From Acidobacteriota bacterium (GTDB lineage: Bacteria > Acidobacteriota > JAAYUB01), in NCBI GenBank assembly GCA_040768985.1, contig JAXGLX010000002.1, positions 1,856,637 to 1,920,636 on the forward strand: a stretch of 64,000 nucleotides of DNA, given 5' to 3'. Shown here piece by piece: positions 1 through 46,650 of the stretch. Within the stretch, counting starts at the first letter, position 1. Each line of letters begins with the position of its first letter. Under the pieces are notes generated by a model, which saw only the letters and a list, made by a program, of their open reading frames with translations, was not told the DNA's origin and made no database searches. A program made the position numbers and the translations under genes.

Positions 1-1418
1 CACTCATACACGTTGCCATGGGTGTCGTACAGGCCCCACGGATTGGGCAGTTTCGTCGCCACCGCCGCGGTGGCTCCGGGATCGTTGGCGCAGAACACCG
101 CCGCAGACTCCAGATTCTGGAGCACTCCAGTCACACCACAAAGATCACAGTTTTCGGTGGCTAAGTATGGCTCGTCGATCCAGAATGGCGAAGTCGTGCC
201 CGCCCGGCAACAGTACTCCCACTCGCCTTCGGTCAGCAACCGGTAACCGTCGGCGTCGAAGTCGCAGTAGCACGGCCCGGCGGTGTAGTTGGTGGAGTCG
301 ATGGGGACGGTGAAGCCGGCGTTCGCATAGTAGCACCGGGTCAGCCCCTGCTGCACCGAGAGCAGATTGGCGAACAGCACCGCTTCTTGCCAGGAGACTG
401 ACTGCACCGGATTGTGAATTCCTGATCCGTAGGCGGTATCCGTCGGATCGGCCGGCAGTGCGGGCTGCACCGCCCGCAGGGCCGACCACATCTGTCGGGT
501 CAGCTCGGTGGCCATCACGGCCAGGTTGCGGGTCAGGGTGTGGGTGAATTGATCCTCATCCCCCTGGCGGCACGACTCGCCGGTCGGAGATCCCTGGGTG
601 AACGTGCCCGCCGGGATGTACATCAGGCCGCCCACGATGGAATCGATGACGTATAGATCACCCGGCTGGAGATCCGTCTGCACCGCCGTCGGCGCCGCGT
701 TGAAGAAAACGTGGCGATCGTTGGCCTGGTCCCAGGTGATGGACATGGGAGTCGGAAATACCACCTGATCGCTGCTGATCCGGACCATATCGAAATCGTC
801 GACACCCACCCCCGCCCAGATCCCCTCCGAGATGGAGACCAGCTTGGTGTGGGGGGCGATCGTCATCGGGCCGCTGTCCCCCACCTGGACACCCAGGCGG
901 AATGCCTCGAACCGGACCGCCAGGGATGACTCCAAGGGATTCATCACGGCGATGCCGGTGCCGATGAAATGCTCCTGGATGGTGTTGGGCAGCACGTACT
1001 CCCACGCCAGCGTCTCCTGCATGAAAAACTCGCACAGCGACAGGCTGTCGCCGTAGCGGTACGACAGTTTCGGCCGGACCCGCTCGCTGGCCGCGGTGAC
1101 GGCGCAGGTGCCTTCCACTGCCGCAAGCACGATTTCACCCGGGGCCGGCGAGTAGCCGGGGTCGGCGGGCAGGACCACGCTGGTCGCCGCATGGGCGCCC
1201 ACCGGGTACTCGGTGGATGACACCAACTGTCCGTTGGTATTCCAGATGGTCAGGGTGAAGGTGTGGGGCGCATCGTCGTTGTTGTACACGTCGATGCGGT
1301 TGATCCACGGCGACAGCGCGGTGACATGGGCCCCGTAGTACGTGGCGGCCGCCAGGGGCGCCGCGAGTGCTGTGGCGATGACCACGCTCAGCAGAAACCG
1401 GTGCATTCCGAGTTTCAT
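1..1418 (-). CDS. Formylglycine-generating enzyme (FGE/SUMF1) domain protein, C-terminus cut by window edge; N-terminal signal peptide plus ~200-aa unknown domain
   Basis: Minus-strand frame runs off position 1 and is therefore absent from the ORF track. It translates to ...SVSWQEAVLFANLL...GYRLLTEGEWEYCCRAGTTSPFW...NPWGLYDTHGNVYEW, the hallmark FGE-sulfatase motifs. ATG at 1418..1416 with a GGAGGAGG RBS 9 nt upstream. N-terminus MKLGMHRFLLSVVIATALAAPLAAA is signal-peptide-like. Confidence 0.8.
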   Translation of the reverse strand, partial: MKLGMHRFLLSVVIATALAAPLAAATYYGAHVTALSPWINRIDVYNNDDAPHTFTLTIWNTNGQLVSSTEYPVGAHAATSVVLPADPGYSPAPGEIVLAAVEGTCAVTAASERVRPKLSYRYGDSLSLCEFFMQETLAWEYVLPNTIQEHFIGTGIAVMNPLESSLAVRFEAFRLGVQVGDSGPMTIAPHTKLVSISEGIWAGVGVDDFDMVRISSDQVVFPTPMSITWDQANDRHVFFNAAPTAVQTDLQPGDLYVIDSIVGGLMYIPAGTFTQGSPTGESCRQGDEDQFTHTLTRNLAVMATELTRQMWSALRAVQPALPADPTDTAYGSGIHNPVQSVSWQEAVLFANLLSVQQGLTRCYYANAGFTVPIDSTNYTAGPCYCDFDADGYRLLTEGEWEYCCRAGTTSPFWIDEPYLATENCDLCGVTGVLQNLESAAVFCANDPGATAAVATKLPNPWGLYDTHGNVYE

Positions 1419-1439
1419 AACATGAACCTCCTCCATGAA

Positions 1440-1930
1440 AGGTGAGCTTTGATCGCTCCGCCTGTTGTACCGATTGAAAGATATGATTTGACGTGATTGT
1501 ATTGGGATAAATTTCCAAATGCAATCTTTCGATGAACGATAATGTCGGTGAATGGGTGAATGGGTAAATCGGTGAATGGGTGAGGGTTCGTTCTCGTAAT
1601 CGTAATTCGTAATCGTGATCGTGATCGTGATCGTAATCGTGATCGTCATCGAAGTTCAAGGTGAATGGGTGAATCGGTGAATGGGTGAATCGGGAGACGG
1701 GAGACGGGAGACGGAAGACGAGAGACGGAAAACAGAAAACGTTAGATGAACGGAAAAACCCGAACCGCGAGCCGCGAATCGCCAGCCCCGAACCGCGAAC
1801 CCTGAACCGCGAGCCCCGATTTCCGATGTCCGATGTCCGCTGATCGGGAACGAGCCTCGAGTCCCGAGCCTCGATCACGATTACTCAGTTACTTCCGAAA
1901 TTCTGCCAAAATTTGGCAAAATTATTCACC
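1440..1930. repeat. Composite tandem-repeat block: (GTGAATGG/GTGAATCG)n, (CGTAAT/CGTGAT)n, (GGGAGAC)n, (CGAACCGCGAGCC)n, (TCCGATG)n, GGAACGAGCCTCGAG module, CGATTAC; ends with a copy of the R-end motif ACTCAGTTACTYCCGAAATTCTGCCAAAATTTGGCAA at 1880-1930
   Basis: Tandem short-period arrays are directly visible. The same modules in the same order recur at about 12 other sites in this window. Confidence 0.85.
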
Positions 1931-2260
1931 GGTTTCTTCCCCCCCTGATCGCCCATCCCAACATCGACCGGCACCGTCTCCGCATTCACGACGAAAATAG
2001 CCAGGCGCAGCCCCGCGAACGCGGGGCAGCGCCTGGAAGGCCAAATAGTTGACGCGCCGCGCCCCGGGTACGGGGCGCGAAGAAAGCGTGTCGGCGGACT
2101 CCACGCTTCCCCGCGCCCCTGTTCAGGGGCGCGTCGGGTAAAAATACTCGGCTGTCCAGGCGCTGCCCGGCTGCGCCGGGCTGCGCCTGGCTATTGTCTT
2201 TGAAACTGGACGGGCTTGCCGAAGATCCAGGATCGCGGCACGGAGCTGAAGTTCACCATC

Positions 2261-2545
2261 ATGCCCCTTTGGTTCCGGCTCCGCCGGGTTGGGATCACGA
2301 TTACGATCACGATTACGAATCACGAGCACGAGTACGAGCACGATCAGGCAGCGGGCAGGCGGGAGGTACCGCGAGCGGCAGCCAGGGGCGGTCCGCCACG
2401 ACCCCGCGAGCCCCGAACCCCGAACCGCGAACCCCGATGTCCGCAGCTTGGGAACGAGCCTCGAGTCTCGAGCCTCTAGCCTCGATTCCGATTACGATTA
2501 CTCAGTTACTCCCGAAATTCTGCCAAAATTTGGCAAGATATCTGG
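2261..2545. repeat. Composite repeat block with L-end motif (TTGGTTCCGGCTNCGCCGGNTTRGGATYACGATTACGA) at 2261-2310 and R-end motif (CCCGAAATTCTGCCAAAATTTGGCAA, palindromic core TGCCAAAaTTTGGCA) at 2510-2545
   Basis: The L-end motif is repeated at 4193-4245 (direct) and 43930-43985 (inverted). The R-end motif is repeated at 1880-1930 and 44355-44400 (inverted). The R-end overlaps the 3' end of CDS 2498..4060. Confidence 0.8.
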
Positions 2546-4060
2546 TGATGGCGCGCAACGGTCCGACAAGGCAGGGATGAGGAGGAACTCTTGCAGGGTG
2601 ACACCGGCGGCGATGACTTTACGACCGAGGGCGGTGAGGTAGTACTTGTAGCAGCGGGTGGCTTTGCGAATCAGTCCGCGCAGCCGGAGATTTTTCAATA
2701 GTCGAGACACCTGACTGGTCGTGCCGCCCAGGAGTCGGCGGACGTGACGGTTGCGCAGGCCGTTGACCATGAACTCAGCGCGACCGATGGTGCGCAGGAG
2801 GCGCTGATCGTGAGCGGCGAAAAAGTTCAGTCCGCGATACCGGCGCCCCTGATGGGTGTGCGCGTGCGACAGGTCGTCGAGCCGGCGGGCCCCATCGGTG
2901 GGGTCCTCGAGCTGGGCCAGGAAGTCGAGATAACGGGCGTTGGCCGCCCGCATCACCGGCATCAGTTCGGGCAGCGAATAGATGTGTTTGCGAAAAGGGG
3001 CCTCCTTGCAGACGGTGTGACCGGTCCGCTGTACCACCGGACGGTGGTGCCGGAAGTAGGTGATATCATCGGCCACCGTCTCCACCCGCAAGATGCGGTG
3101 ATGCTTGTCATACATCTTGATGGAGACCGGCCAGAGGGTATGTTTGACACAGGTGCCCTGCGGTCGGGTGACGAACAGGGTGTCCACGGCGCCCTTGGGC
3201 AGATGGGGAAACTGGCGGCCGAAGAATGCCGTCACCCGCTCCGGCTTCGCCGCCAAGATCACCGCGCGCGACAGGTGCTCATAGACCTGGCGCAACGCGG
3301 TCGGATCGCGAAACACGATGTCCGTGGCATACTCCACCTGGGAAACGGACCAGTGATACGTGGTCTCGAACGTCTCCATCACCGGGCAGCAGCGCCGGGC
3401 ATACTCATCGAGCCGGGCATGCAACCGGGCGATCGCCCAGTCGTCCGCCAGCCGCTGCGCCGCGGCATAGTCGGCCACCTGATGGAAGGCGTTGTCCTGC
3501 AGCGTAAACGCCACGCCCGCCGCCGCCAGCCGGTGGGCCAGCCAGGCGTGGCCGTTGAAGCAGACCTGCAGCCGGTACGGGCACCAGGTCGGTACGCGCA
3601 GGTGCAGCAGGCCCAGTTCCGCATCCAGGAAATAGAAATAATAGTGCAGGCACTTGCCGCCCCGCACCGTCAAATAGGGCGCCCCACTCGGGCGGCGGTG
3701 CCGCACCTCGTACGACTCGCAGCGTTCCTCGGCCGACAGAATGCAGACCAGGCCCGGCGTGTCGCCTCGGGCCGCGCGGCGGGCCTGCGCCACCTCTTCC
3801 TTGCGCACGCTGGCCTTCCGGATGAACTCGATCGTCTGCCCGTTCGCCGCGGCCAGCGCCTCCGCGGTCTGTTTGATCCGGTCTCGCAACCCCATCACCA
3901 GCGGCAGATACTCCGTCAGCGGCCGTTGCCGGCTGTGCAGGTAGGCCGCCATCCCGTCCCGGTAGCAGATCGTCGGCAACGTGCCGAAGAGCAGAATCCG
4001 GTCGTAACACGACAGCACGCCGGCAATCTCGTGCGAATAGCGCGTCTGCAGGTTGCTCAT
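2498..4060 (-). CDS. Hypothetical 520-aa protein with a C-terminal winged-HTH-like region; cargo of a repeat-bounded putative mobile unit; family not recognised
   Basis: Long minus-strand ORF with no long competing frame. The last ~13 codons (ILPNFGRISGVTE) are encoded by the R-end repeat that also occurs at two other sites. The basic region LRNRHVRRLLGGTTSQVSRLLKNLRLRGLIRKATRCYKYYLTALG is HTH-like. No DDE, HUH or tyrosine-recombinase signature was recognised. Confidence 0.6.
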   Translation of the reverse strand: MSNLQTRYSHEIAGVLSCYDRILLFGTLPTICYRDGMAAYLHSRQRPLTEYLPLVMGLRDRIKQTAEALAAANGQTIEFIRKASVRKEEVAQARRAARGDTPGLVCILSAEERCESYEVRHRRPSGAPYLTVRGGKCLHYYFYFLDAELGLLHLRVPTWCPYRLQVCFNGHAWLAHRLAAAGVAFTLQDNAFHQVADYAAAQRLADDWAIARLHARLDEYARRCCPVMETFETTYHWSVSQVEYATDIVFRDPTALRQVYEHLSRAVILAAKPERVTAFFGRQFPHLPKGAVDTLFVTRPQGTCVKHTLWPVSIKMYDKHHRILRVETVADDITYFRHHRPVVQRTGHTVCKEAPFRKHIYSLPELMPVMRAANARYLDFLAQLEDPTDGARRLDDLSHAHTHQGRRYRGLNFFAAHDQRLLRTIGRAEFMVNGLRNRHVRRLLGGTTSQVSRLLKNLRLRGLIRKATRCYKYYLTALGRKVIAAGVTLQEFLLIPALSDRCAPSPDILPNFGRISGVTE

Positions 4061-4189
4061 GGGTCACCATCTGAGAGAAAGGAATACTCCGATTATAGGC
4101 GATGTGGACCGCATGGAAAATCCTGCCCGCAAGAGAATACATTCCCGGCCGAACGCCGAGAGGCTGATGATCAGCCTTCGAGATACAGA

Positions 4190-4325
4190 TAATGCTTTTT
4201 GGTTCCGGCTACGCCGGCTTAGGATTACGATCACGATTACGAATTACGAGCACGAGCACCCAACTCCTATCTCCTGTCTCCTCACTGTTCACCGTTCACT
4301 GTTCACCGTTCACCGTTTTACATAG
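4190..4325. repeat. L-end motif copy (4193-4245) followed by CGATTACG array and GGAGATAGGAGA / GTGAACGGTGAACAG arrays
   Basis: Direct repeat of 2261-2310 lying 135 bp upstream of the ATG of CDS 2498..4060; tandem heptamer arrays visible. Confidence 0.8.
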
Positions 4326-4391
4326 ACCTTGCGGGATGCCGGGATTTTAACTATACTTTGCTTTTGAATCGTTGTTGAACGGAGTTTAAAC

Positions 4392-4796
4392 ATGGAACGG
4401 AAGATCCGCGTGCTCATCGCCAAGCCGGGCCTTGACGGCCACGACCGCGGCGCCAAGGTCATCGCCCGGGCGCTGCGCGATGCCGGGATGGAGGTCATCT
4501 ACACGGGGCTGCGCCAGACGCCGGAGCAGATCGTCGCCGCGGCGCTCCAGGAAGACGTGGACGTGATCGGCATCTCCATCCTCTCGGGTGCTCACATGCA
4601 TCTCTTCCCCAAGATCATGGCCTTGGTGAAGGCCAACCAGATGGACGACGTGCTCGTCTTCGGCGGCGGCATCATCCCCGAGGGGGATGTACCCCAGCTC
4701 CAGGCCATGGGCGTGGCCGCCATCTTCCCCCCTGGCACCTCCACCCAGTCGGTGATCGATTTCCTGAAGGAACGCTTCCAGGCCGCCAAGGCCTGA
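4392..4796 (+). CDS. Cobalamin (B12)-binding domain protein (methylmalonyl-CoA mutase C-terminal domain-like)
   Basis: 134 aa; [36 protein letters not shown]...[14 protein letters not shown] matches the B12-binding Rossmann domain with the DxHxxG motif. Confidence 0.85.
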
Positions 4797-4815
4797 GCGC
4801 CGCCCCAAACAGATC

Positions 4816-4857
4816 GCGCCCCGGACAGCGGCAGCCGTCCGGGGCGCTGTGTTTTTG
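4816..4857 (+). terminator. Rho-independent terminator after the B12-binding gene
   Basis: GCGCCCCGGAC-agcggcagcc-GTCCGGGGCGC, an 11-bp stem, followed by TGTGTTTTTG. Confidence 0.65.
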
Positions 4858-4898
4858 CAGGGGCGCCCGCCGCCCGAGCGCGGGCTCCGCCGGCGGCG

Positions 4899-5603
4899 CT
4901 AGCGGCCGCCCTCGGCGAGCATCCGGTGCACCTCCTGGGGGACCGGCCCCTGGGCCCAGAAGCGCAGCTCGGTGATCTCGTCGGGAGCCGAGCGGCCGTA
5001 CTTGTAGAAGATGAGCAGGAACTGGCGGTCGTCGAGGCGGCGGTACTCCTTCAGCGAATCCCATTCCTTCACGAACGCCCGGTCGGCGCACTTGGCCGCG
5101 CCCGTCTCGAAGACGATCTTGTCCTCGCGCAGCACCAGGGTGCCCATGCAGTTGGGCCCGTTGAGGTCCAGCTCGACTTTCAGCCGGTACGGCAGCTCCA
5201 CCGGCTCGGCGGGCTGGCCGGCCGGCGCCATGGCCCGGGGACCCATCCGGCCCTGGATGTAGCCGATGGCGGCCATGTTGTCGGGATTGTCGTCGCGGAA
5301 CTTCAGCACGTACTTCTGCCCCTTGCCGTGCACGGTGTCGGAGAAGAACACGTGGAACTCCCAGGTCGAGTCGAACACGATCCGCTCGATGTTGGCGTAC
5401 TCCCAGATCCGGCCGCAGCCCACGTTCCTGGACTCGAAGATCACCTTGTCGTCGCGCACGATGAGGGTGCCCTGGCACTCGCCGCTGCGGTGGTTGTGCT
5501 CCACCTTGATCTGGTAGAGGGTCTCGGCCAGCGCCGGCGCCGCCAGCACGACGGCGACGAACAGGAGCAGCGCGGCCAGCCGCCAAGTCGCTATCCGATG
5601 CAT
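4899..5603 (-). CDS. Secreted protein with internal ~110-aa duplication, unknown function
   Basis: ATG at 5603 with a GGAGG RBS; signal peptide MHRIATWRLAALLLFVAVVLAAPALA; two homologous halves (YQIKVEHNHRSGECQGTLIVRDDKVIFES... / YRLKVELDLNGPNCMGTLVLREDKIVFET...). Overlapping long ORFs on both strands judged spurious high-GC frames. Confidence 0.6.
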   Translation of the reverse strand: MHRIATWRLAALLLFVAVVLAAPALAETLYQIKVEHNHRSGECQGTLIVRDDKVIFESRNVGCGRIWEYANIERIVFDSTWEFHVFFSDTVHGKGQKYVLKFRDDNPDNMAAIGYIQGRMGPRAMAPAGQPAEPVELPYRLKVELDLNGPNCMGTLVLREDKIVFETGAAKCADRAFVKEWDSLKEYRRLDDRQFLLIFYKYGRSAPDEITELRFWAQGPVPQEVHRMLAEGGR

Positions 5604-5763
5604 GTGTACCTCCAGGTTCAGATGACGTGGTGTCAGGATAGCTCAATCCGGCCGCCGCCGCAAGCGGCCGGCGGCCGCATTTTTCCAATTTGCGGCTAGC
5701 TTTTTAGCCGGGCACCACGTATACCATTCTTTTACGATCTCGATCCGAATGGAGGACCCACCC

Positions 5764-7131
5764 ATGGACGCCTTGGATTTTTTAGCCCAACATGAAGCCG
5801 ACAACCTGGATCAACTCAAGGAACTGCTGCGGATCCCCAGCGTCAGCGCCCAGTCCGAGCACGCCGCCGACACGCGCCGCTGCGCCGGCTGGGTGGCGGA
5901 CCACCTGCGCGGCATCGGCCTGGCGGCCGAGGTGTGCGAGACCGGCGGCCACCCGGCGGTGATCGCCGAGTACCAGGGGCCCGCCGGCGCGCCGACGGTG
6001 CTCGTCTACGGCCACTACGACGTCCAGCCGGTCGATCCGGTGGAGCTCTGGAAAAGCACGCCCTTCGATCCCATTGAGTCGGACGGCTACCTGCTGGCGC
6101 GCGGCGTCACCGACGACAAGGGCCAGTTCTTCACCCACGTCAAGGGCGCCGAAGCGTGCCTCCGCACCGCCGGCGCGATCCCGTGCAGCCTGAAGTTCCT
6201 CATCGAGGGCGAGGAAGAATCCGGCTCCGCCCACCTGAACGCGTTCATCGAGGCCAACCGCGAGCGGCTGGCCGCCGACGTGGTGGTGATCTCCGACGGC
6301 TGCCAGTACGGGCCGGACATGCCCGCCATCAACTTCGGCCTGCGCGGGCTGGCGTTCGTCGAGGTCCGGCTCACCGGCCCCGACCGGGACCTGCACTCGG
6401 GCTCCTACGGCGGCGCCGTGGCCAATCCCGTGAACATGCTGGCCCGGATGATCGGCCAGCTCCACTTCGCCGACGGCCGCATCCGGGTGCCCGGCTTCTA
6501 CGACCGGGTGTACACCGCCACCGCCTGGGAGCGGGAACAGTTCGCCCGGCTGCCCTTCGACGCGAAGGAATACCGGCGCTCCACCGGCGCACCGGCGCTC
6601 TGGGGCGAGCCGGGCTTCACGCCCCTGGAGCGCACCTGGATCCGGCCCACCCTCGACGTCAACGGCATCACCGGCGGCTACCAGGGCGAGGGGGGCAAGA
6701 CCATCATCCCGGCGTGGGCCTCGGCCAAGATCACCATGCGCCTGGTGCCCGACATGACCCCCGAGGACACGGCGGCCAAGCTCGAGGCGTACCTGCGGCA
6801 GATCTGCCCGCCCTCGGTCCGGCTGGAGGTGATCCACCACGGCGGCGCCCCGGCGGTGCAGGTGCCCGTGGACGGCCCCTGGCTCGAAGCGGCCGCACGC
6901 GCGCTCGAGACGGGCTTCGGCCGGCGCCCCTTCTTCACGAAGGAGGGCGGCTCGATCCCGGTGGTGGGCACCTTCAAGTCGGTGCTGGGCATCGACACCC
7001 TGCTCATCGGCTTCGGCCAGCAGACCGACAATCCGCATTCGCCCAACGAGCGGATGCTCATTCGCGATTTCCACCGGGGCTGCCGCACGGCGGTGGCCCT
7101 GTTCCACGAACTGGCCGGCGTGCGCCGCTGA
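5764..7131 (+). CDS. M20 family metallopeptidase (dipeptidase / ArgE/DapE-like)
   Basis: GHYDVQP...DDKG...EGEEESGS...H motifs typical of M20. The ATG at 5764 has a GGAGGA RBS 7 nt upstream; an alternative ATG lies at 5749. Confidence 0.85.
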   Translation: MDALDFLAQHEADNLDQLKELLRIPSVSAQSEHAADTRRCAGWVADHLRGIGLAAEVCETGGHPAVIAEYQGPAGAPTVLVYGHYDVQPVDPVELWKSTPFDPIESDGYLLARGVTDDKGQFFTHVKGAEACLRTAGAIPCSLKFLIEGEEESGSAHLNAFIEANRERLAADVVVISDGCQYGPDMPAINFGLRGLAFVEVRLTGPDRDLHSGSYGGAVANPVNMLARMIGQLHFADGRIRVPGFYDRVYTATAWEREQFARLPFDAKEYRRSTGAPALWGEPGFTPLERTWIRPTLDVNGITGGYQGEGGKTIIPAWASAKITMRLVPDMTPEDTAAKLEAYLRQICPPSVRLEVIHHGGAPAVQVPVDGPWLEAAARALETGFGRRPFFTKEGGSIPVVGTFKSVLGIDTLLIGFGQQTDNPHSPNERMLIRDFHRGCRTAVALFHELAGVRR

Positions 7132-7205: not shown

Positions 7206-9461
7206 ATGCGCCAGATTCTGACTGTGTGCCTGATTCTCGCCGGCCTGCTGCTCTCGGCGCCGGCCGCGCCGCAGGGGGCCGAACCGGCCGCCCCGCCGCT
7301 GACCATCGACGAGGTGCTGAGCCCGGCGCACCGGACGGCGTTCCGGCTGCCGTCCTACTACTGGCTCCCCGGCGATCAGATCCTGCTGTTCGATTCCGGG
7401 AAGCCGGGCGCCGAACGCGGCCTGGAGCGCTACGACCCGGCCACCGGCGCGCGCACCCCGCTGCTGGCGGATCCGGCCGCGGCGCTGAAGGGGCTCAACG
7501 AGCTGCTGACCGCCGGCGGAGGGACGGCCGAGGAGCACCTGGGCGAGCCCCTGGAGCTGGACGCCGCCGGGAAGCGGGCCCTGCACCTGATCGCCGACGA
7601 CGTCTTTCTGCAGGACCTGGCCACCGGGGCTTTCCGGCGGATCACGCGCACGCCCGCCGCAGAGGCCGAGCCGCATTTCTCGCCCGACGGCCGGTGGGTG
7701 GCGTACCACCGGGAACACAACCTGTACGTCACCCGGCTCGCTGACGGCAAAGAGCACGCCCTCACCCGCGACGGCCGCGACACCCTGCTCAACGGCACCC
7801 TGTCCTGGGTGTACTGGGAGGAGATCTTCGGCCGGGAGGACCTGGGCTACTGGTGGTCGCCCGACTCCACGGCCATGGTGTACCTCAAGTCGGACGAGTC
7901 GCAGGTGCCGGTCTCCTACTTCCCCGACTACGAGCCGGCCACGCCGGCGGTGCACCGCCAGCGCTACCCCAAAGCGGGCGAGACGAACCCGTCCGTGTCG
8001 GTCTGGCTCGCCGAGGTGCCCGGCGGCAAGGCCCGCCGCGTCGCGTTCGCCGATCCCGAAATCGAGTACGTCGTGCGGGTGCACTGGCTCCCCCACGGCC
8101 GCAGCGTCGCCGTCCAGACCATGAACCGGGCCCAGAACCGCCTGAAGGTCTGGCTGGTGGACCGCCGCCGCGCGACCGCCCGCGTGATCCTCACCGAGGA
8201 GAGCCCCACGGTGGTGAGCATCCACGACGACCTGGCCTTCACCGCCGACGGCGCCCGCTTCGTCTGGGCCTCGGAGCGGGACGGCCGCAACCGGCTGTAC
8301 CTCTATGAGGTCAGCGGGAAGCTGGTCCGCGCGCTCACCCCCGCGAACCTGCTGGTGCGCGCCTCCAGCGGCGTGGCCTGGGTGCGGGGGGGCCTCTGCG
8401 CCCTGGACGAGGCCGGCGGCTGGGTCTACTACACCGCCACCGACGGCGCGCCCATCGCCCCGGCGCTCTACCGCTCGCCGCTGGCCGGTGGTGTCGCCGA
8501 GCGGCTGACCCGGGAGCCGGGCAGCCACCGGGTGGGCTTCAGCCCGTCGATGCAGTACTTCTTCGACGAGCATTCGTCCATGAGCCGGCCGCCGGGGCTG
8601 ACCCTGCGCCGGGCCGACGGCGAGGCGGTGCGCGTCGTGGCGGCGCCGGCCGTGGACCACGCCGCGAAACTGGGGCTGCTGTATCCCGAATTCCTCACCA
8701 TTCCGGCCGAGGACGGCTTCGCGCTGCCCGCGCAGATCCTCAAGCCGGCGGCGCTGGAGCCGGGCCGCCGCTATCCCGTGATCCTCTACGTCTACGGCGG
8801 GCCCAACGCCCCGGTGGTGGGCGACCGCTGGGGCCGCGACCTGCTCATGAACAATCTGCTGGTGCAGCGCGGCTACATCTGGATGGCCGTGGACAACCGC
8901 AGCGCCTCCGGCCTGGGCAAGGCGCTTGAGGACACCGTCCACCACAAGCTCATGAGCGGCGGCGAGGTGGCCGACATCGTGGCCGCCGTGCGCTGGATCA
9001 AGCGCCAGCCGTGGGCGGACCCGGACCGCGTGGGCGTGTGGGGCTGGAGCGGCGGCGGCACGTTCACCGTCCAGCTCATGAGCCAGAGCCGGGAGTTCCG
9101 CGCCGGCATCGCCGTGGCGGGCGTGTACGACTTCCGCTACTACGACTCCGTCTGGGCGGAGCACCTCCTGGGCCTGCCCAAGGACAATCCCGAAGGCTAC
9201 AAGGCCGGCGCGCCGGCCACCTGGGCCAAGAACCTGCACGGCCGGCTGTTCCTCGTCCACGGCCTGGCCGACGACAACGTCCATCCCCAGAACGCCTGGC
9301 GGCTGACCGACGAGCTCATCGCGGCGAAGATCCCGTTCGACCTGATGGTCTATCCGCGGCAGGGCCACGGCATCCGCGCCCCGGCCAGCTACCGGCACCT
9401 GATGACGGCGATGCTGGATTTCTGGAAGAGATGGTTGAAGGGAGAGAACGGTGAACAGTGA
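7206..9461 (+). CDS. S9 family serine peptidase (dipeptidyl-peptidase IV / prolyl oligopeptidase type), secreted
   Basis: Signal peptide MRQILTVCLILAGLLLSAPAAP; DPPIV-like N-terminal propeller region; catalytic GWSGGG (VGVWGWSGGGTF), Asp (HGLADDNV) and His (GHGI). GAGGAG RBS before the 7206 ATG. The upstream part of the 6156..9461 ORF is an in-frame extension over the M20 gene. Confidence 0.9.
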   Translation: MRQILTVCLILAGLLLSAPAAPQGAEPAAPPLTIDEVLSPAHRTAFRLPSYYWLPGDQILLFDSGKPGAERGLERYDPATGARTPLLADPAAALKGLNELLTAGGGTAEEHLGEPLELDAAGKRALHLIADDVFLQDLATGAFRRITRTPAAEAEPHFSPDGRWVAYHREHNLYVTRLADGKEHALTRDGRDTLLNGTLSWVYWEEIFGREDLGYWWSPDSTAMVYLKSDESQVPVSYFPDYEPATPAVHRQRYPKAGETNPSVSVWLAEVPGGKARRVAFADPEIEYVVRVHWLPHGRSVAVQTMNRAQNRLKVWLVDRRRATARVILTEESPTVVSIHDDLAFTADGARFVWASERDGRNRLYLYEVSGKLVRALTPANLLVRASSGVAWVRGGLCALDEAGGWVYYTATDGAPIAPALYRSPLAGGVAERLTREPGSHRVGFSPSMQYFFDEHSSMSRPPGLTLRRADGEAVRVVAAPAVDHAAKLGLLYPEFLTIPAEDGFALPAQILKPAALEPGRRYPVILYVYGGPNAPVVGDRWGRDLLMNNLLVQRGYIWMAVDNRSASGLGKALEDTVHHKLMSGGEVADIVAAVRWIKRQPWADPDRVGVWGWSGGGTFTVQLMSQSREFRAGIAVAGVYDFRYYDSVWAEHLLGLPKDNPEGYKAGAPATWAKNLHGRLFLVHGLADDNVHPQNAWRLTDELIAAKIPFDLMVYPRQGHGIRAPASYRHLMTAMLDFWKRWLKGENGEQ

Positions 9462-9652
9462 AGAGTGAGGAGACAGGATACAGGAGATAGGAGTTTAATG
9501 TATGTTATAGTGTTAAACTTAAGACAGGACTGTGTTCTACTATTTTGTGTGGTTGATTTGCAATTTCGACAGTTTGTATTTTTGACTATGATAAGTTGTA
9601 CTCGATTTAAACACTATTTTTTTTGAATCCGACGACACAGGAGGAATATTTG

Positions 9653-11101
9653 ATGACTAAAATTCTTAGAGTTTTTCCATATTATCTAATTTTCAGTTTT
9701 TTTATTTCTTTCAACTTCTCTCAACAGAATCCTCCCGATCCATATTCATATTATTATCCTGATTCTCTTGGTAATGGTTCATCTGATGGAATAATACAGT
9801 CTCCTGGAAAGGGTTGGGCCGCTTATGTTTCTTGGCAGCCAGATATATTTAGAAGTTACGATGATCTTGAATCAAAATTTGAAACTTTAATTTCTGGCGG
9901 TTGCAATGTATTATACTTAAGGCCTACATGGAAAGAATTCACCAATGATTATGCCCAACTTTGCATTTTCATGCAAAATATTCAAGATTTCAACTCCGGA
10001 AAGAATTTATGGGAAGATAAAATCAAAGTAATTATACGAGTAATGGTCACAAATACTTGCAATGAAGATAATTCTGACTACCCATACTATATTAGCCCTG
10101 ATTCTTTATGGCAGCTTTGCTATAACTCGAGCCCCTGTACTTCCCATACATATTATTTTTGTGGACAAGAAAACGACTATCAGATAAGAGAGCTAAAATA
10201 CACATCTAGTACTGCCAGAGTAGTTTTTCTTGATTATCTATCAAATATCTCAAATTTTCTCGAAGAAAACGGACAAAATGTAATCGCAATTGATTCTGGG
10301 TTCATGGGGGATTGGGGTGAAAACCATTTGCTGATGTATGTGTTCTATGGAAATAATGATTGGAATTCTTTTCTAAGTGCATATTCACTTTGGTTTTCAG
10401 ATTTAATTTGTGCAGTAAATCAATATAATGTAATCGTATTTTCTTGTGCCAACAATCACTGGTACTTTCTGTCTCCTTCAATAGCAAATGATATGTTTTC
10501 GTTAATGAAATCAAAAGGCTTTACATTTCGTAGGGACAGCCCTCCTGAGGTTGATCCCATTGAATTTAACTCGATGTTTACAAATTTCGTTCTCTCCTCA
10601 AGTCCTTCGATGATTGAATGGGATCAAAATGATGGACTATTAAATGATTTCACGTTAAGATATCCAAATTTTTCGCAATTGCAAATGGTACATCATGATA
10701 TAGATGGGTGGGGTTTGGAACCAGCTATTTCTTCTCTTACAGATCCCGACTATTTATTATTTATGAATAAATTGGGATATCGTCTTAGAATCAATCATGT
10801 ACGCTACGTTGTAAAACAAAATTTGTTTATCAATATTAGTAATATAGGCTATGGATTTTGCGTTAATGATATTCGCTTGCTCTTGAAGGTAAAACAGATC
10901 TCGACACAAAATTTCATTGTCTTAAAAACATCAACTGTAACCTCTTCTACAATAAGAACATTGCGCCGCGGAGGAGTTGATTGTCTTGATGTTGGTTTTG
11001 CCTGGCCAACGCGTCCAGTTGGAACTGAACCAGATTTTTATGGCTCTTCGCTTTTTAGTGTGGGTAACGCTATACAAGTCCTGCACTCCTGGTTACGATA
11101 G
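9653..11101 (+). CDS. AT-rich secreted hypothetical protein; 3' end disrupted by the ISL3 insertion
   Basis: ~35% GC. ATG at 9653 with an AGGAGG RBS; the track's 9623 start is TTG. Hydrophobic N-terminus ILRVFPYYLIFSFFISFNFSQQ. From about 10957 the ORF becomes GC-rich read-through into IS sequence. Confidence 0.6.
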   Translation: MTKILRVFPYYLIFSFFISFNFSQQNPPDPYSYYYPDSLGNGSSDGIIQSPGKGWAAYVSWQPDIFRSYDDLESKFETLISGGCNVLYLRPTWKEFTNDYAQLCIFMQNIQDFNSGKNLWEDKIKVIIRVMVTNTCNEDNSDYPYYISPDSLWQLCYNSSPCTSHTYYFCGQENDYQIRELKYTSSTARVVFLDYLSNISNFLEENGQNVIAIDSGFMGDWGENHLLMYVFYGNNDWNSFLSAYSLWFSDLICAVNQYNVIVFSCANNHWYFLSPSIANDMFSLMKSKGFTFRRDSPPEVDPIEFNSMFTNFVLSSSPSMIEWDQNDGLLNDFTLRYPNFSQLQMVHHDIDGWGLEPAISSLTDPDYLLFMNKLGYRLRINHVRYVVKQNLFINISNIGYGFCVNDIRLLLKVKQISTQNFIVLKTSTVTSSTIRTLRRGGVDCLDVGFAWPTRPVGTEPDFYGSSLFSVGNAIQVLHSWLR

Positions 11102-12470
11102 AGCGGCAAGATGGGCTGTGGAAATATGGAAATCCCTGCGCGGACTCCGGGATTCCCACAATTCCACAGCCCCGGCTACGATTACCCCGCTAACCCAGAA
11201 ACCACGTAGGGAACCATCATGCGAGACACGGATTTGTTTCAACTGGCGCTCGGGCTGCTGCCGCCCTGGCTGGTGAAGGACTGCCAGTTCAGCGTGAGCG
11301 AGCAGCGGCTGGACCTGTATATCGACTTCGCCAAGGGCGGGAGCTTCACCTGTGCGGACTGCGGGCAGGCAGGCTGCCCGGCGTACGACACCGAGGAGCG
11401 GACCTGGCGGCATCTGAACTTCTTCCAGCATGAGACGTACCTGCATGCCCGGGTGCCGCGGGCGGAGTGCCCCCAGTGCGGGGTGAAGACGGTGGCGGTG
11501 CCGTGGGCGCGGCCGGGCAGCGGCTTCACGCTGTTGTTCGAAGCGCTGGTGATGACGCTGGTGCGGCAGATGCCGGTGCGGGCGGCCAGCCGGATCGTGG
11601 GCGAGCACGACACGCGGCTGTGGCGGATCGTCCACCACTACGTGGGCGCGGCGCGGGCGCAAGCCGACCTGTCCGGAGTGCGCCGGGTGGGCATCGACGA
11701 GACGGCCAGCCGGCGGGGTCACCACTACATCAGCGTGTTCGTGGATCTGGACCGGGCGAAAGTGGTGCATGTGGCGCCCGGCAAAGATGGCGACACGGTG
11801 GCGAGCTTCGCCGAGGATCTGACCGCCCATGGCGGAGCGGCGTCCCAAGTGGCGGAAGTCTGCATCGACATGTCGCCGGCCTTTCAGGCGGGGGTGCGGG
11901 AGCATCTGCCCGCGGCCCGGATCACCTTCGACAAATTTCACGTGACCCGGCTGCTCAACCAGGCGGTGGACCAGGTCCGGCGGGCGGAGCAGGGCCAGCG
12001 GGCGGAACTGAAGCGGACGCGCTACCTGTGGTTGAAAAACCGGCGGCACCTGACCGTTGGGCAACGGGCCCGGCTGGCCGACCTGGAGGACCGACGGTTG
12101 AACCTGAAAACGGCGCGGGCGTTGCGGCTCCGGGAAAGTTTCCAGGACTTCTACGACCAGCCGCCCGAATGGGCCGGCGCGTACCTGAAGCGGTGGTATT
12201 TCTGGGCCACCCACAGCCGGCTGGCGCCGCTCATTGACGTGGCGCGGACGATTCGGGAGCACCAGGACGGCATCCTGCGCTGGTTTCAAACGCGGGTGAC
12301 GAACGGCTTGCTGGAAGGTATCAACAGCCTGATCCAGGCGGCCAAGGCCAAGGCGCGAGGCTATCGCACCCTGAACAATCTCATGGTCATGGTCTATCTG
12401 GTGGCGGGTAAAATGGACTTTGAAACCTGAGTTAGCCATAGTAATCAGCGAGGAGGCATTTTTATATTTC
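10957..12470 (+). mobile_element. ISL3-family insertion sequence (~1.5 kb) inserted in the AT-rich island
   Basis: ~68% GC block embedded in ~35% GC DNA, carrying the ISL3 transposase gene. Boundaries estimated from the GC transition; a GGCTCTTCGCTTTTTAG end-like motif sits at 11041. TIR/DR not confidently resolved. Confidence 0.65.
11219..12430 (+). CDS. ISL3 family transposase
   Basis: 403 aa. MRDTDLFQLALGLLPPWLVKDCQFS...CADCGQAGCPAYDTEERTWRHLNFFQHETYLHARVPRAECPQCG zinc-ribbon N-terminus and DDE core typical of ISL3. Confidence 0.9.
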   Translation: MRDTDLFQLALGLLPPWLVKDCQFSVSEQRLDLYIDFAKGGSFTCADCGQAGCPAYDTEERTWRHLNFFQHETYLHARVPRAECPQCGVKTVAVPWARPGSGFTLLFEALVMTLVRQMPVRAASRIVGEHDTRLWRIVHHYVGAARAQADLSGVRRVGIDETASRRGHHYISVFVDLDRAKVVHVAPGKDGDTVASFAEDLTAHGGAASQVAEVCIDMSPAFQAGVREHLPAARITFDKFHVTRLLNQAVDQVRRAEQGQRAELKRTRYLWLKNRRHLTVGQRARLADLEDRRLNLKTARALRLRESFQDFYDQPPEWAGAYLKRWYFWATHSRLAPLIDVARTIREHQDGILRWFQTRVTNGLLEGINSLIQAAKAKARGYRTLNNLMVMVYLVAGKMDFET

Positions 12471-12831
12471 GCTTCAGGTTAAGGACAAAAAAACTGGAAC
12501 TTGGGTAGATGTTCCTTGGTCTAATAATAACAATGGTGAAACTTTACCTTCCAAAAATTTAAAGCTCATTTTGTAAGAATATTTGAAAACTAGAAATAAT
12601 TTGGTTTTCAATCATCTGACCAAATTCATCCGAATGCTTGCATTCTCGTCTAAATGTTTATAAAGCAACTTACCTGAATCAAGCTTTGTTCGATGCGTTT
12701 CGTGTACGTCTGCCGATTGGTGGGTAGGCAAAAAATTATCATAGATTTTCCGAGACCCCATTAACATCTCGCATTACGATCATTGTATTTCAAATAGAAG
12801 GGGGTTTGTGGTTAGAGAACATTTTTCAAAT

Positions 12832-14178
12832 TTAAGGATTTTTCATCGCAATGACAAAAAATTCCTCTCCAAGTCCGAGTTTTTGTGCAACCGTTGGCCA
12901 TAGATGTTTGGCATCTTTATCGGAGGAGAAAAAATTGTTGGTTTTTAAATACTTCACATCTAGTTTGGCTTTTTTCAACATATCGAGTAGTTCACTCTTT
13001 GAAAATTCGGTATGATAAAAAAATTTTCCATCAATTTCTTGGTGTATATCTCGTCTTGGTAACCTTTCAGAATTAAATTGCCCCATAAATATTCGATAAA
13101 ACATAACGGGATTTTTAATCATCTTAAAATGTGCCCGATTATTTGTTGTTAAGATTGCTCTGCCCCCTGGACGAAGGACGCGATATATTTCCATCAACCC
13201 AGCTATAGGATCATGAAGATGCTCAAGTACGTCTGTGAAGACAACATAATCAAAAGAATCTGTTGCCAAAGGAATACGCATTGCATTCGCAAGGATGGCA
13301 TCACTGTTGAATAACTTTCGAAAGGCGAGGACGTTGAAATCTTGTGTATCTAACCCGATTAATTGGCAACCATGTTCTTCAAAGAACCTATTAACCTCTT
13401 GATGTGTTATTCCTCCACATCCAAGGCACAGGATACTTTTTCCCTCAAGAGTCATCGACCTCATTTTTTTAAATATTTTATGTAAATATTTCGCCTTTCT
13501 CGATACAAATTTCCGCTGTTCAGTTTCCATTTGCCACGTTTCTTTTTCATCGTTTTCTACATCAAGTTTTAAATCGCGATTCCAACTTTCAAGAAGATTA
13601 AATCCTCCTCCGAAGTGTCTTCTTTCGGAGAGTAATCCGCGTTCACAAAGGTCAGCCAAACGAGACGCATGTGTTCTAAAGTAATTTTCCTTACATATAT
13701 AAAAGTGGTTCGCTGATGCAATCCACGCTCTAAAATACCCCATAATCATGAAGATAACTATACTCGCCAGTGCTATTGTAAAGATGAGAGATGAAAACAA
13801 ATTCAGTTTGAAAAAGAGTACAAATAAAGTGGCAAGTACCAGCGACGAGAGCAGAACGAATCGTTTCTGATTATCACGATAAGTGCGAATTTTATATTTT
13901 AAACTCTCTTCAAAAGCGTCATGTTTTAGAATTCGCCAATTGTTCAAAGTTTTAAAATTTAGCACATTATCTTTGTAATCATGATTCCATAATCGCACAC
14001 AAACGTCATCTTCCAACCAAAGTACGGGTATTTCTTGAAAAATTTTATATTCCAAATGACAAACGGCACATTCCAAGTTAGATCGTTTTTTATTATTGCC
14101 GTCTTCTGCACCATCCTGTTTTACAATTATCATTCCAAGGCAAATCGGACATCTCAATTTAAAAACAAATTCTATCAT
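12832..14178 (-). CDS. Membrane-anchored class I SAM-dependent methyltransferase with N-terminal zinc ribbon (AT-rich, likely horizontally acquired)
   Basis: 448 aa, ~33% GC. CPICLG...CAVCH zinc ribbon, two to three TM segments, C-terminal ILCLGCGGITHQ...DYVVFTDVLEHLHDP...VLRPGGRAILTT MTase motifs I-III. Confidence 0.75.
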   Translation of the reverse strand: MIEFVFKLRCPICLGMIIVKQDGAEDGNNKKRSNLECAVCHLEYKIFQEIPVLWLEDDVCVRLWNHDYKDNVLNFKTLNNWRILKHDAFEESLKYKIRTYRDNQKRFVLLSSLVLATLFVLFFKLNLFSSLIFTIALASIVIFMIMGYFRAWIASANHFYICKENYFRTHASRLADLCERGLLSERRHFGGGFNLLESWNRDLKLDVENDEKETWQMETEQRKFVSRKAKYLHKIFKKMRSMTLEGKSILCLGCGGITHQEVNRFFEEHGCQLIGLDTQDFNVLAFRKLFNSDAILANAMRIPLATDSFDYVVFTDVLEHLHDPIAGLMEIYRVLRPGGRAILTTNNRAHFKMIKNPVMFYRIFMGQFNSERLPRRDIHQEIDGKFFYHTEFSKSELLDMLKKAKLDVKYLKTNNFFSSDKDAKHLWPTVAQKLGLGEEFFVIAMKNP

Positions 14179-14464
14179 TTAGGTATTACTCCGTGAACAA
14201 TTTGATAAATCAAAGTATAAGTTTAGTATATCTTTCAAGCAAGTAATCGCTAATTTTTAGTGGTTTTGTTCAAAACTTCAACCTCTCTTAATACTACTTT
14301 CTTTACATTAAAAAATCAATTTTTCTGTTGATTTGTTGGTTAGACTCACACACTGATAGAATATAGTACATCACGAACAATGCAATCTCACGATGATTCT
14401 CACATAGAGATTGCGCAGTTCGTCCTGGAATGCAACTCGTTTATACCCGATCACGCAAGTTGCA

Positions 14465-14765
14465 TTTCCCGCCCATCCTCCGTAATTCGTAATCGTGATC
14501 GTAATTCGTGCTCGAGGCTTGGGACTCGGGGCTCGAGGCTCGTTTCCAAGCTGCGGACATCGCGGTTCGGGGTTCGGGGTTCGGGGTTCGCGGTTCGGGG
14601 TTCGGGGTTCGCGGTTCGCGGTTCGCGGCTCGGGGCTCGGGGTTCGCGGCTCGGGGCTCGGGCTCGGGGTTCGCGGCTCGGGGTTTTCCGTTCAGCTAAC
14701 GACTTCCGTCTCCCGCCTCCCGATTCACCCATTCACCCATTCACCCATTCACCCATTCACCGGCC
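14465..14765. repeat. Composite repeat block in reverse orientation (CGTAAT, CTCGAGG, CGGACATCG, GGGGTTCGCGGTTCG arrays, GTCTCCC, TTCACCCAT arrays)
   Basis: Same modules as 1440-1930 in reverse-complement order. Confidence 0.8.
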
Positions 14766-14768
14766 GAC

Positions 14769-15347
14769 TCAGCGGCGGGGGAAGCGAGGCTGCCGACGGT
14801 CAGGTCCAGTGCCCCTGGCCCGGTGCGCCGGCGCGGCCTCACGCAGCCGGGAGGACCACTGCCACAGTCCGTTGATGGCGGCCGGCGGGAGGCGGTGGCC
14901 CAGCGCCCGGGCCGCGACGACGAGCTGCCCCCGGTGGTGCGACTCGTGGGACAGGGCGTAGCCGCAGAAGAGGACCGCGTCGCGGGGCATGGCGCCGTAG
15001 ATGAACGGGCTCTTCACGCCGGGAAACGGGCCGCCGTTTGCCAGCCCCGCGTGCAGCAGGCGCTCCACGGCATCGGCGCTCAGGGCCAGGGCCGCGAGGA
15101 CATCGGCCGGCGCGGCCGCGGCGCGGTTCACTTGGCAGGGAACGGCGATCCCGGACGCCGTCGCGAGACTGTTCAGCCAGAGGCAGCGGCAGTTGTGGGG
15201 GTGGGCGGCGATGCTCCGCACGGTGCGGCGGGGCGCGCCGGGCAATCCCAGCGGCCAGAGGTCCGCGGGGAGTTGCTCCACAAGGAACGCGGTGACCCGG
15301 CTGTTGATGCGCCACGCATTCAGGATGGATTCGTGAAGCGCGTTCAT
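14769..15347 (-). CDS. DinB/DinB_2 superfamily protein (HxxxH...HESHHRGQ metal-binding motif)
   Basis: ALSHESHHRGQLVVAARAL motif; ATG at 15347. The C-terminal ~25 aa are encoded by the repeat block, so the true stop is uncertain. Confidence 0.6.
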   Translation of the reverse strand: MNALHESILNAWRINSRVTAFLVEQLPADLWPLGLPGAPRRTVRSIAAHPHNCRCLWLNSLATASGIAVPCQVNRAAAAPADVLAALALSADAVERLLHAGLANGGPFPGVKSPFIYGAMPRDAVLFCGYALSHESHHRGQLVVAARALGHRLPPAAINGLWQWSSRLREAAPAHRARGTGPDRRQPRFPRR

Positions 15348-18057: not shown

Positions 18058-18464
18058 GCGGCCGATTCACCACCAAGGCACGAAGGGCACAAAGAGATCA
18101 TCACCATTTGTCACTGATCATTTTTCATTGATCAATTGTCATTGGTAATTTTGGATGGTGAATCGGGAGACGTGAGACGGGAGATGTCAGACGGGAAGCA
18201 TCAGACAAACGGGAGGAATCGAACCGCGAAACCCGAACCGCGAGCCCCGATATCCGACGTCCAAAGTCCGATGTCCGGCCAGATCCCGGGTCCCAAATCC
18301 CAGATCCCATCCACAGCATGAACGAACTCTTTTCCAGATAGCCATTAAAATATAAGCAATCAACAATAACCAATAATCCGAAATGCCCAATGAAAAATGT
18401 CAGATGATCAATGACAAATGCATCTCTCTGTGCTCTTCGTGCCTTAGTGGTGAGAAGACCAAAT
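18058..18464. repeat. MITE-like unit: ~85-nt conserved 3'-end element at both ends in inverted orientation, flanking a composite tandem-repeat core
   Basis: 18069-18150 (CACCAAGGCACGAAGGGCACAAAGAGATCATC...GTCACTGATCATTTTTCATTG) versus the reverse complement of 18380-18460, each abutting the stop of one of the convergent genes. The core holds GTGAATCG, GGGAGAC, CGAACCGCGA and TCCGAYG arrays. Confidence 0.8.
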
Positions 18465-34865: not shown

Positions 34866-34869
34866 CGCG

Positions 34870-39930: not shown

Positions 39931-39932
39931 CC

Positions 39933-46610: not shown

Positions 46611-46650
46611 GGCCAGACAAGTTCAGATCATGGGCGAGGTGAACATCGTG

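Follow-up and report, generated by a model that had tools for sequence, protein, structure and literature searches.

The stretch of DNA analyzed here, a window of 64,000 nucleotides from an Acidobacteriota bacterium (GenBank assembly GCA_040768985.1, contig JAXGLX010000002.1, positions 1,856,637 to 1,920,636 of the forward strand), harbors a small AT-rich islet at positions 9499..14480 that varies between strains and was probably gained by horizontal transfer from a donor with a long AT-rich history. The inserted segment measures 4982 bp at present and measured 3558 bp before an insertion sequence (IS) of the ISL3 family entered it. It carries two convergent genes, gene 1 for a putative secreted glycosidase-like protein and gene 2 for a predicted membrane methyltransferase, and lies between two core genes encoding an S9/DPP-IV-type peptidase of 751 aa on the left (7206..9461, plus strand) and a DinB-family protein of 192 aa on the right (14769..15347, minus strand; Pfam DinB, 3.7e-10). 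The S9 gene, assigned from the list of open reading frames (ORFs) and the Pfam families of the same gene in contig L001, is present in all close strains, and the DinB gene adjoins the empty site in L110. Throughout, L-numbers denote genome or metagenome contigs of compared strains and P-numbers homologous proteins. Based on the flanking S9 peptidase, the host belongs to an uncultured Acidobacteriota lineage of about 67–70% GC, with contig JAKQOW010000052.1 (metagenome-assembled genome USMO_maxbin.051) as its closest genome contig at about 93–96% nucleotide identity. After the close strains, scans of genomes and metagenomes revealed the next S9 relatives at a protein identity of only 53–57%.

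Islet and host contrast plainly in composition. An earlier note, made from the sequence alone, had described an AT-rich region with atypical codon usage in both of its genes, and both points were borne out, with about 34–35% GC in the region versus 67% around it. The two AT-rich halves showed a GC content of 0.342 (9499-11041) and 0.354 (12458-14480), corresponding to z ~ -5.7 against a background of 232 windows of 500 bp (mean 0.668, standard deviation 0.056, minimum 0.51). On a 1-kb grid, GC ranged from 0.57 to 0.74 throughout the window except at 9–11 kb and 12–14.4 kb. A 200-bp profile fell from 0.72 to 0.30 across 9300-9600, reached 0.64–0.74 at 11200-12300, returned to 0.30–0.41, and stayed at 0.69 or above past 14500; the high-GC stretch inside the AT-rich region (11042-12457) is the IS itself. 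GC at third codon positions (GC3) was 0.28 for gene 1 and 0.32 for gene 2, compared with 0.89–0.95 for the neighboring genes for an M20 peptidase, the S9 peptidase, DinB, and GH35. Host-rare codons, defined as those used fewer than 2 times per 1000 in 18 host ORFs, accounted for 18–23% of the islet codons, versus 0.1% in the S9 gene and 0.5% in the IS transposase. The tetranucleotide signature of the islet correlated with that of the host at r = 0.42, while equal-sized host chunks averaged 0.80 and never fell below 0.73. The deviation extends to first and second codon positions (GC1 and GC2), which are low in the islet genes too, and to the amino acids F, Y, M, I, N, and K, whose share is 0.35 in the islet proteins versus 0.13–0.18 in host proteins. 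The methyltransferase (36% GC) is 41% identical to a homolog encoded at 66.5% GC, with amino acid usage shifted accordingly. Because this shift and the low GC1 and GC2 go beyond GC3 alone, they point to long residence in an AT-rich genome.

Comparison with close relatives provided occupied as well as empty sites. The islet is present in the window, in L001-L008, L017, and L108, and absent from L109 and L110, whose S9 flanks are 96.5% and 94.4% identical to that of the window at the nucleotide level (94–97% for both flanks). While L001-L008 are 98–99% identical to the window, all of these contigs, including L017 and L108, carry the islet without the IS. In L110, only about 180 bp lie between the S9 and DinB genes. 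L109 lacks the islet as well and harbors a different small gene for a secreted protein after the spacer: located at 2770-3297 of that contig (minus strand) between the mosaic spacer and the DinB gene, it specifies a product of about 175 aa that carries a signal peptide (MRKNVLVVVLYVALACAALLG...). With at least three states among strains that are 94–97% identical, this observation marks the S9-DinB spacer as a plasticity hot spot. The uninterrupted spacers of L109 and L110 support the horizontal acquisition that the earlier note had proposed. Identical junctions were found in at least eight independent assemblies. Short-read contigs L002, L003, L005, L006, and L007, which derive from several unrelated samples, end at the same points (9381 and ~14500-14505); such shared ends fit an assembly graph that branches because one sample contains strains with and without the islet, or different repeat variants.

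Since two close sister strains lack the segment, its boundaries could be determined to the base. The islet sits within a mosaic tandem-repeat spacer, the left half of which (9446..9498, GGTGAAC- and GGAGAYA-type units) contains the stop codon of the S9 gene, ends in ...GGAGTTTAA at 9498, and continues straight into CGTAAT-type units in L110 and L109. The right half (14481..14765; CGTAAT/CGTGAT, CTCGAGG, GGTTCGG/GGTTCGC, and CCCATTCA units) aligns to the spacers of the same two contigs, so that in strains without the islet the two halves, 9446-9498 and 14481-14765, form one contiguous block. The occupied site reads ...GGAGTTTAA (to 9498) / TGTATGTT ... CCCATCCTC (to 14480) / CGTAATTCG..., and the empty site reads ...GGAGATAGGAGTTTAA-AGGCCTTCG(T/A)GCT-CGTAATTCGTAATCG...; the islet replaced the 13 bp AGGCCTTCG(T/A)GCT within this repeat spacer between the convergent S9-peptidase and DinB genes. 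Without the insert, the window flanks align over their full length to the empty spacers except for the copy number of the tandem repeats. L017 and L108 share both junctions. The earlier note had placed the borders at about 9480 and 14370 and the repeat block on the right side only; the compositional shift is indeed sharp, though the island-free sisters put the insert at 9499-14480, inside the repeat block with one half on either side.

No target duplication and no direct or inverted repeats were detected around the insert, no tRNA gene was found anywhere in the window, and the ORF list contained no integrase-like ORF within or beside the islet. Because tRNA genes, flanking repeats, and mobility ORFs are missing, the term islet suits the segment better than classical genomic island. 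Rfam models did not match the islet at E <= 0.1 or any part of the window at gathering scores, and a promoter scan was not significant (16 promoter-like sites versus 9.2 ± 3.5 expected in AT-rich DNA). Apart from the two genes and the IS, the islet comprises an AT-rich spacer between the convergent genes (12577..12831), which has no convincing ORF and no Rfam match and is the most strain-variable part at about 4.3% divergence, and the AT-rich upstream region of gene 2 together with the right insert end (14179..14480), which contains two short hairpins (~14382-14414 and ~14428-14470).

The window and L017 diverge by 2.97% within the islet and by 3.24% within the left flank, and the closest strains differed by 1.5% in islet and flank alike; because islet and flank diverged equally, the islet has been resident in the population for some time. 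The acquisition proposed in the earlier note thus stands, while its description as recent needs qualifying, given some 3% divergence, the same as in the flank. The dN/dS ratios were 0.21–0.28 for gene 1 and 0.21–0.26 for gene 2, close to the 0.18–0.23 of the S9 gene, and both cargo genes are under purifying selection in the host. The two flanks yielded conflicting strain distances, with a strain tree near a trichotomy, which indicates recombination within the population. Amelioration as a framework for acquired DNA reportedly goes back to Lawrence and Ochman. Using L017 as outgroup, we polarized the islet substitutions into 23 strong-to-weak (S>W), 15 weak-to-strong (W>S), and 12 W>W changes, and those of the flank into 35 S>W and 14 W>S changes. 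The implied equilibrium GC is about 0.26 for the islet (23 S>W at ~1204 S sites, 15 W>S at ~2236 W sites) and about 0.50 for the flank; by our own arithmetic, the log rate ratios of islet and flank differ with z ~ 2.2 at these small counts. Based on these few substitutions, the islet displays no sign of amelioration.

The IS (11042..12457, plus strand; 1416 bp, GC 0.65) encodes a transposase of 403 aa (11219..12430, plus strand) with zinc-ribbon, helix-turn-helix, and DDE domains (PF01610, 1.7e-72; PF13542; PF14690), which matches the NCBIfam model transpos_ISL3 (NF033550) with 342.7 bits (cut-off 180, E 2.5e-102). Its terminal inverted repeats (11042-11068 and 12431-12457) are imperfect, matching at 20 of 27 positions, and begin with GGCTCTTCGC... 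and GCCTCCTCGC..., respectively. A perfect 8-bp duplication, ATTTTTAT, is located on both sides (11034..11041 and 12458..12465) and occurs as one copy only in IS-free strains. According to ISfinder, members of the ISL3 family are about 1.2–1.6 kb long, have inverted repeats starting with GGCTCTT, and generate 8-bp AT-rich target duplications. The IS of the window shares with them the three domains, its length, the start of the inverted repeat, and the duplication; only its setting is unusual, as an element of host-like GC within the sole AT-rich DNA nearby. Since there is one copy, the duplication flanks the IS alone, and the other islet-bearing strains (L001-L008, L017, and L108) lack it, the IS arrived after the islet, and for the same reasons we rejected it as the vehicle of the islet. 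The earlier note had listed it as cargo of the island; instead, it interrupts gene 1 and is host-like in composition (GC3 0.87 for the transposase gene).

Excision of the IS and loss of one duplication copy joins codons 1-463 of gene 1 (9653..11041, plus strand) to its last 36 codons and stop (12466..12576, plus strand), resulting in an ORF of 499 aa. This native form is intact in independent metagenome assemblies as P0001, which differs from the rejoined ORF by one residue (reported as 100%) and has the gene context of the window, namely M20 peptidase, S9 peptidase, gene 1, and methyltransferase. The ORF 9653..11101, which the earlier note had taken as the native gene, is a truncated form in which the left end of the IS supplies the final 20 codons. 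As the IS costs the protein its last 36 residues, among them the invariant D470, N483, and P491, gene 1 is probably inactive in the window strain, in which gene 2 is intact. L004 and L005 revealed a nonsense codon at position 249 of gene 1 and a 1-bp deletion near its 3' end. A further 136-aa fragment from a representative library, P0032, corresponds to window positions ~10810-11060, that is, to the C-terminus of gene 1 with small indels; it runs through ATTTTTAT into GGCTCTTCGCTTTTT and then into a sequence unlike the IS of the window. This protein fragment suggests that, in another sample, a further ISL3-type element inserted independently at the same ATTTTTAT target.

The N-terminus of gene 1 resembles a signal peptide, and its homologs have clearer ones. 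P0001 matched DUF4874 with 18.4 bits (gathering score 30.1; residues 193-235) and DUF4832 with 13.7 bits (gathering score 29.2; residues 371-452), in the correct order, but with both matches below threshold. Among six family members, DUF4832 was detected in three (best E 2.7e-4) and DUF4874 in two. The AF2 model of the protein displays an alternating β/α region followed by a β-sandwich at a low pLDDT of 65 (pTM 0.68). All of its top 30 fold matches in the PDB are glycosidase barrels (GH14 β-amylase, GH35, GH79, GH1, GH20), with TM-scores of only 0.3–0.38, and a sequence search of the PDB, profile included, resulted in no match at E <= 10. One structure, 8Z47, was considered as a characterized DUF4874 enzyme and dropped, as it is an ordinary GH35 β-1,2-galactosidase (PMC11739564) that matches at the level of the barrel only. 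E322 is invariant in the family. An exhaustive HMMER scan of 1.84 billion representatives identified seven real gene-1 clusters (at 50% identity) that are 25–35% identical, and a word-indexed search with the single sequence or a seven-sequence profile matched gene 1 to itself alone.

These few relatives differ in architecture and composition. P0028 is a stand-alone protein, 35% identical over its full length, encoded at a GC content of 0.28 in a genome of 0.33 next to a PMT_2 glycosyltransferase gene (low-GC contig L097, GCA_053940225.1). P0029 bears a dockerin (GC 0.60, GC3 0.70), P0030 has BACON domains and adjoins two Methyltransf_11 genes (L100), P0031 and the L009 protein carry about 11 FN3 repeats ahead of the gene-1-type domain, and P0033 is a stand-alone protein of 677 aa adjoining a gene with Sortilin-Vps10 and Ig domains. 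Since P0029, P0030, and P0033 are encoded at a GC3 of 0.65–0.70 in hosts of 0.61–0.62 GC, AT-richness is not intrinsic to the family. DUF4874/DUF4832 proteins (PF16173, PF16116), which resemble glycosidases and are uncharacterized, occur in polysaccharide loci and in cellulosomes: published work describes DUF4832 genes alongside Pel loci of Gram-positive bacteria and a cellulosomal protein that combines DUF4874, DUF4832, and a dockerin. The gene-1 family would resemble them in the order of its weak matches, the predicted barrel and β-sandwich, putative secretion, homologs fused to dockerin, BACON, or FN3, and polysaccharide-related neighbors. Unlike them, it scores below threshold throughout, forms a separate and very small clade, and has no sequence relative in the PDB even by profile. 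It may represent an undescribed glycoside-hydrolase-like family.

Gene 2 (12832..14178, minus strand; 448 aa) converges on gene 1 and is intact in all strains. It comprises an N-terminal Trm112-like zinc ribbon of the type CxxC...CxxC, a hydrophobic hairpin (residues 104-155), and a C-terminal class I SAM methyltransferase domain that matches PF08241 with 57.1 bits (gathering score 21.2). Motif I, LCLGCGG, is invariant among its relatives, as are C10, C37, and C40 of the zinc ribbon, with the second Cys near-invariant. The profile of gene 2 matched PDB entry 6zxw_H over residues 3-53 (E 1.6e-8), and PF03966 matches weakly in the homolog P0004. The structure model (pLDDT 80.5) yielded class I methyltransferase folds at E 1e-10 to 1e-11, the best ones being AtmM, RebM, MitM, and TleD, which are small-molecule or sugar O-methyltransferases, and one Trm112-activated methyltransferase. 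Judging from the 52-residue hydrophobic stretch (Kyte-Doolittle maximum 2.57), which lies inside predicted helices 88-124 and 131-179, the protein is predicted to be anchored in the membrane. Its fold, motif I (LGCGG), and ribbon are shared with Methyltransf_11 enzymes fused to Trm112-like zinc ribbons, and it resembles the glucose O-methyltransferases RebM and AtmM structurally. Unlike in the known ribbon methyltransferases, a putative transmembrane hairpin separates ribbon and catalytic domain, and the linker has conserved motifs specific to the family (YKDFVLN, LSER-HFGGGE, EQ-AFVSRKA). About seven full-length relatives were found, 37–53% identical and located in high-GC genomes at native or near-native GC; one of them (L107) lies directly upstream of GT2, GT4-type, and polysaccharide-deacetylase genes. 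PADLOC reported just a generic methyltransferase-domain match (mad2, E 5e-6), which we did not read as a defense system.

Both gene families are rare, and their pairing recurs in a second lineage. In L009, a gene-1-type domain is located immediately upstream of a gene 2 homolog that is 41% identical. Positions 1-6825 of this contig (also L010-L014) encode a protein that exceeds 1773 aa and contains about 11 FN3 repeats; along its gene, the GC content drops from 0.62 to 0.40. The C-terminal 540 aa of this protein are the gene-1-type domain (GC 0.39, GC3 0.32), and the adjacent methyltransferase gene has the host GC of 0.665 (GC3 0.89). L009 offers a second, independent example of an AT-rich copy of a gene-1-type domain in a GC-rich genome; either the domain was replaced there through another transfer out of an AT-rich source, or something maintains its AT-richness. 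Based on sequence and models, the two proteins would act on one extracellular or cell-surface glycan: gene 1 might be exported and bind or cleave a polysaccharide by its predicted (β/α)8 barrel and β-sandwich, and gene 2, membrane-anchored and facing the cytoplasm, would most likely methylate a sugar or a lipid-linked intermediate.

As for the origin of the islet, we infer a gain in which a segment of about 3.56 kb would have entered the chromosome by illegitimate, non-site-specific recombination, landing in the repeat-rich non-coding spacer between convergent core genes and replacing 13 bp. It would have brought along two convergent genes with their own AT-rich upstream regions, been retained under purifying selection, and been passed among strains together with its flanks; as the only AT-rich DNA in the neighborhood, it may then have attracted a resident ISL3 element preferring AT-rich targets. 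The low-GC donor assumed in the earlier note is supported insofar as the islet has a long AT-rich history and P0028, the closest gene-1 relative, is encoded in a genome of 33% GC, but searches with both proteins did not recover the donor itself. Several points weigh against a transfer of this kind. The best matches outside the species were 35% identical for gene 1 and 53% for gene 2 (37–53% among its relatives) in about 15 billion proteins, and those of gene 2 sit on high-GC contigs. No outgroup is closer than 57% S9 amino acid identity, which leaves the direction of gain unproven and a loss in L109 and L110 possible; as no relative is intermediate (S9 identities of 95–97% are followed by 57%), the direction is judged from base composition and from how the empty site is built. 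The absence of amelioration (23 S>W, 15 W>S) would be expected equally under selection for AT-richness, and with two independent disruptions observed and a third deduced from P0032, gene 1 may be dispensable in the host. For a glycan function in particular, all DUF matches of gene 1 fall below the Pfam gathering scores, its model and fold matches are poor (pLDDT 65, TM-scores just 0.3–0.38), and the putative acid/base Glu of the WGENH motif is Gln in P0029.

If the islet were instead an old resident that L109 and L110 deleted, its AT-richness would have been maintained by nucleoid silencing, low expression through rare codons, or a tendency of surface-glycan genes, which are often argued to tend towards AT-richness. 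The AT-biased substitution spectrum of the islet (equilibrium GC ~0.26 versus ~0.50 in the flank), purifying selection on both genes, and the AT-rich gene-1-type domain of L009 beside a methyltransferase gene of host GC (0.665) agree with this account. We consider it unlikely all the same, because the 13 bp of the intact empty spacer are found at neither end of the islet and would not result from a simple deletion, because family members encoded at high GC (P0029, P0030, P0033) show that the protein does not force AT-richness, and because GC1, GC2, and amino acid usage are typical of a long AT-rich history; the polarized counts are small besides. A chimera of assembly or binning, in which a low-GC contig was misjoined into a high-GC one, would explain the extreme jump in GC and the short Logan contigs L003, L005, and L006 that begin and end within ~120 bp of the islet edges. 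It is hardly credible, as both junctions are spanned in L001, L002, L004, L017, and L108, whose assemblies are independent and stem from different samples and pipelines, the AT-rich DNA contains a GC-rich IS that has host codons and a perfect 8-bp target duplication, and strain divergence is equal in islet and flank. That the segment is what remains of a prophage, integrative element, or composite transposon, brought in by ISL3 or by an integrase since lost, appears very improbable: the IS inside the islet, the hot spot at which L109 has a different secreted-protein gene, and further transposase remnants near similar repeat blocks (33650-36200) favor it, but the IS is a single copy that came later, neither integrase nor tRNA nor att-like repeats were found, the 2.9 million viral contigs of IMG/VR contained no relative of either gene, and gene 1 belongs to no PHROG or PADLOC family.

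The earlier note had raised a surface-polysaccharide or host-interaction function as a possibility, and a glycan role is plausible from weak DUF matches, folds, modules, and neighbors; we regard the question as evenly poised. A cargo unrelated to glycans, with a methyltransferase acting on a lipid, quinone, or small molecule and a non-catalytic gene 1 product, the two maybe functionally unrelated, is possible although rather doubtful. The methyltransferase matches are generic (UbiG, MenG, and BioC below threshold, natural-product O-methyltransferases in the PDB), the presumed catalytic Glu varies within the family, and L015 and L016 have a methyltransferase homolog without a gene-1 partner. 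On the other hand, the pair recurs in L009 and the methyltransferase association in L100, neighboring genes encode glycosyltransferases and a deacetylase (L107) or PMT_2 (L097), homologs bear carbohydrate-type accessory modules, and the sugar O-methyltransferases AtmM and RebM are among the best folds. More speculatively, and in our view decidedly unlikely, the pair could be a self-contained glycan-tailoring cassette that is transferred time and again out of an unsampled AT-rich lineage into GC-rich hosts (the lineage of the window, the unrelated L009) and is kept AT-rich by selection, e.g., by a nucleoid silencer or rare codons, with mosaic spacers as preferred capture sites.

Genomic islets and small islands are recognized by atypical composition and strain-variable presence (PMC2704930). 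The segment described here is like known islets in its sharp compositional break, foreign codons, strain-variable presence, cargo of surface or secreted type, and location in a variable intergenic hot spot. Unlike typical genomic islands, it has two genes only and no integrase, tRNA target, direct repeats, or mobility genes. Compared with reported islets, its GC gap of about 33 points (GC3 of 0.3 versus 0.94) is near the usual extreme, and among the ~15 billion proteins no potential donor sequence exceeded 35% identity for gene 1 or 53% for gene 2. As AT-rich foreign DNA in a GC-rich chromosome that displays no sign of amelioration, it also bears a resemblance, by analogy only, to the xenogeneic islands of other phyla that are silenced by H-NS, MvaT, Lsr2, or Rok.

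Mosaic blocks like the one around the islet, i.e., runs of 6–8-nt tandem units in recurring order and both orientations, were observed between genes throughout the window (1500-2540, 4200-4311, 9446-9498 with 14481-14765, 18150-18450, 32316-32430, 33224-33530, 39734-39935, 43860-44390, 48540-48610, 56527-56900, and 61550-61725). Their units include GGTGAATG/C, CGTAAT/CGTGAT, CTCGAGG, CCGATGT, GGGAGAC, GGTTCGG, GGGACCT, and TGACAAA, and unit types as well as copy numbers vary between close strains; where the window has runs of GGTTCGG, for instance, L110 has runs of GGACCTG. The relatives L018 and L111, at 57% identity, harbor comparable runs, and we found no description of such blocks; L104, considered as another carrier of the host repeats, was rejected, as it has merely a short CGATCA run. 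A conserved unique motif, TCAGTTACTYCCGAAATTCTGCCAAAATTTGGCAARAT, with the palindrome TGCCAAAATTTGGCA, follows a mosaic block at 1885-1922, 2502-2539, and 44353-44390 (inverted), and GC-rich inverted segments of 50–70 nt lie near two of these sites (2336-2390, 44040-44110, 44286-44356); the motif may represent a regulatory site or a short non-coding element. The region 33650-36200 (GC 0.58–0.64), which begins directly behind the mosaic block 33224-33530, contains only short broken ORFs resembling fragments of helix-turn-helix and rve/DDE transposases (MILDIRRGRSYRWVAQRYGVGLATVARWVNR..., ...VPIGEPWRQGVVERFHDVLDRLFF) and probably represents decayed IS copies. Five diverged copies of a 78-nt (26-codon) repeat (...VRRAAV..RI.DPAVLVRVA...) were detected in the coding region 45950-47438, which probably encodes a HEAT/PBS-lyase-like repeat protein.

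Altogether, the islet probably represents an ordinary kind of horizontal transfer in an unusually stark case. The finding opens no long-standing question; it is set apart by how large the GC gap is, by empty and occupied sites known to the base, by rare gene families that recur as a pair, and by an unsampled donor, and few such transfers in uncultured Acidobacteriota come with exact empty and occupied sites as well as intact and disrupted alleles. An AT-rich donor lineage that shares the habitats of these bacteria would be missing from the databases, and the two rare families traveling together are a candidate glycan-modification module. The islet may serve as a calibration case for island-detection methods and be useful for studying how GC-rich genomes handle AT-rich DNA with regard to expression, silencing, and the attraction of insertion sequences.

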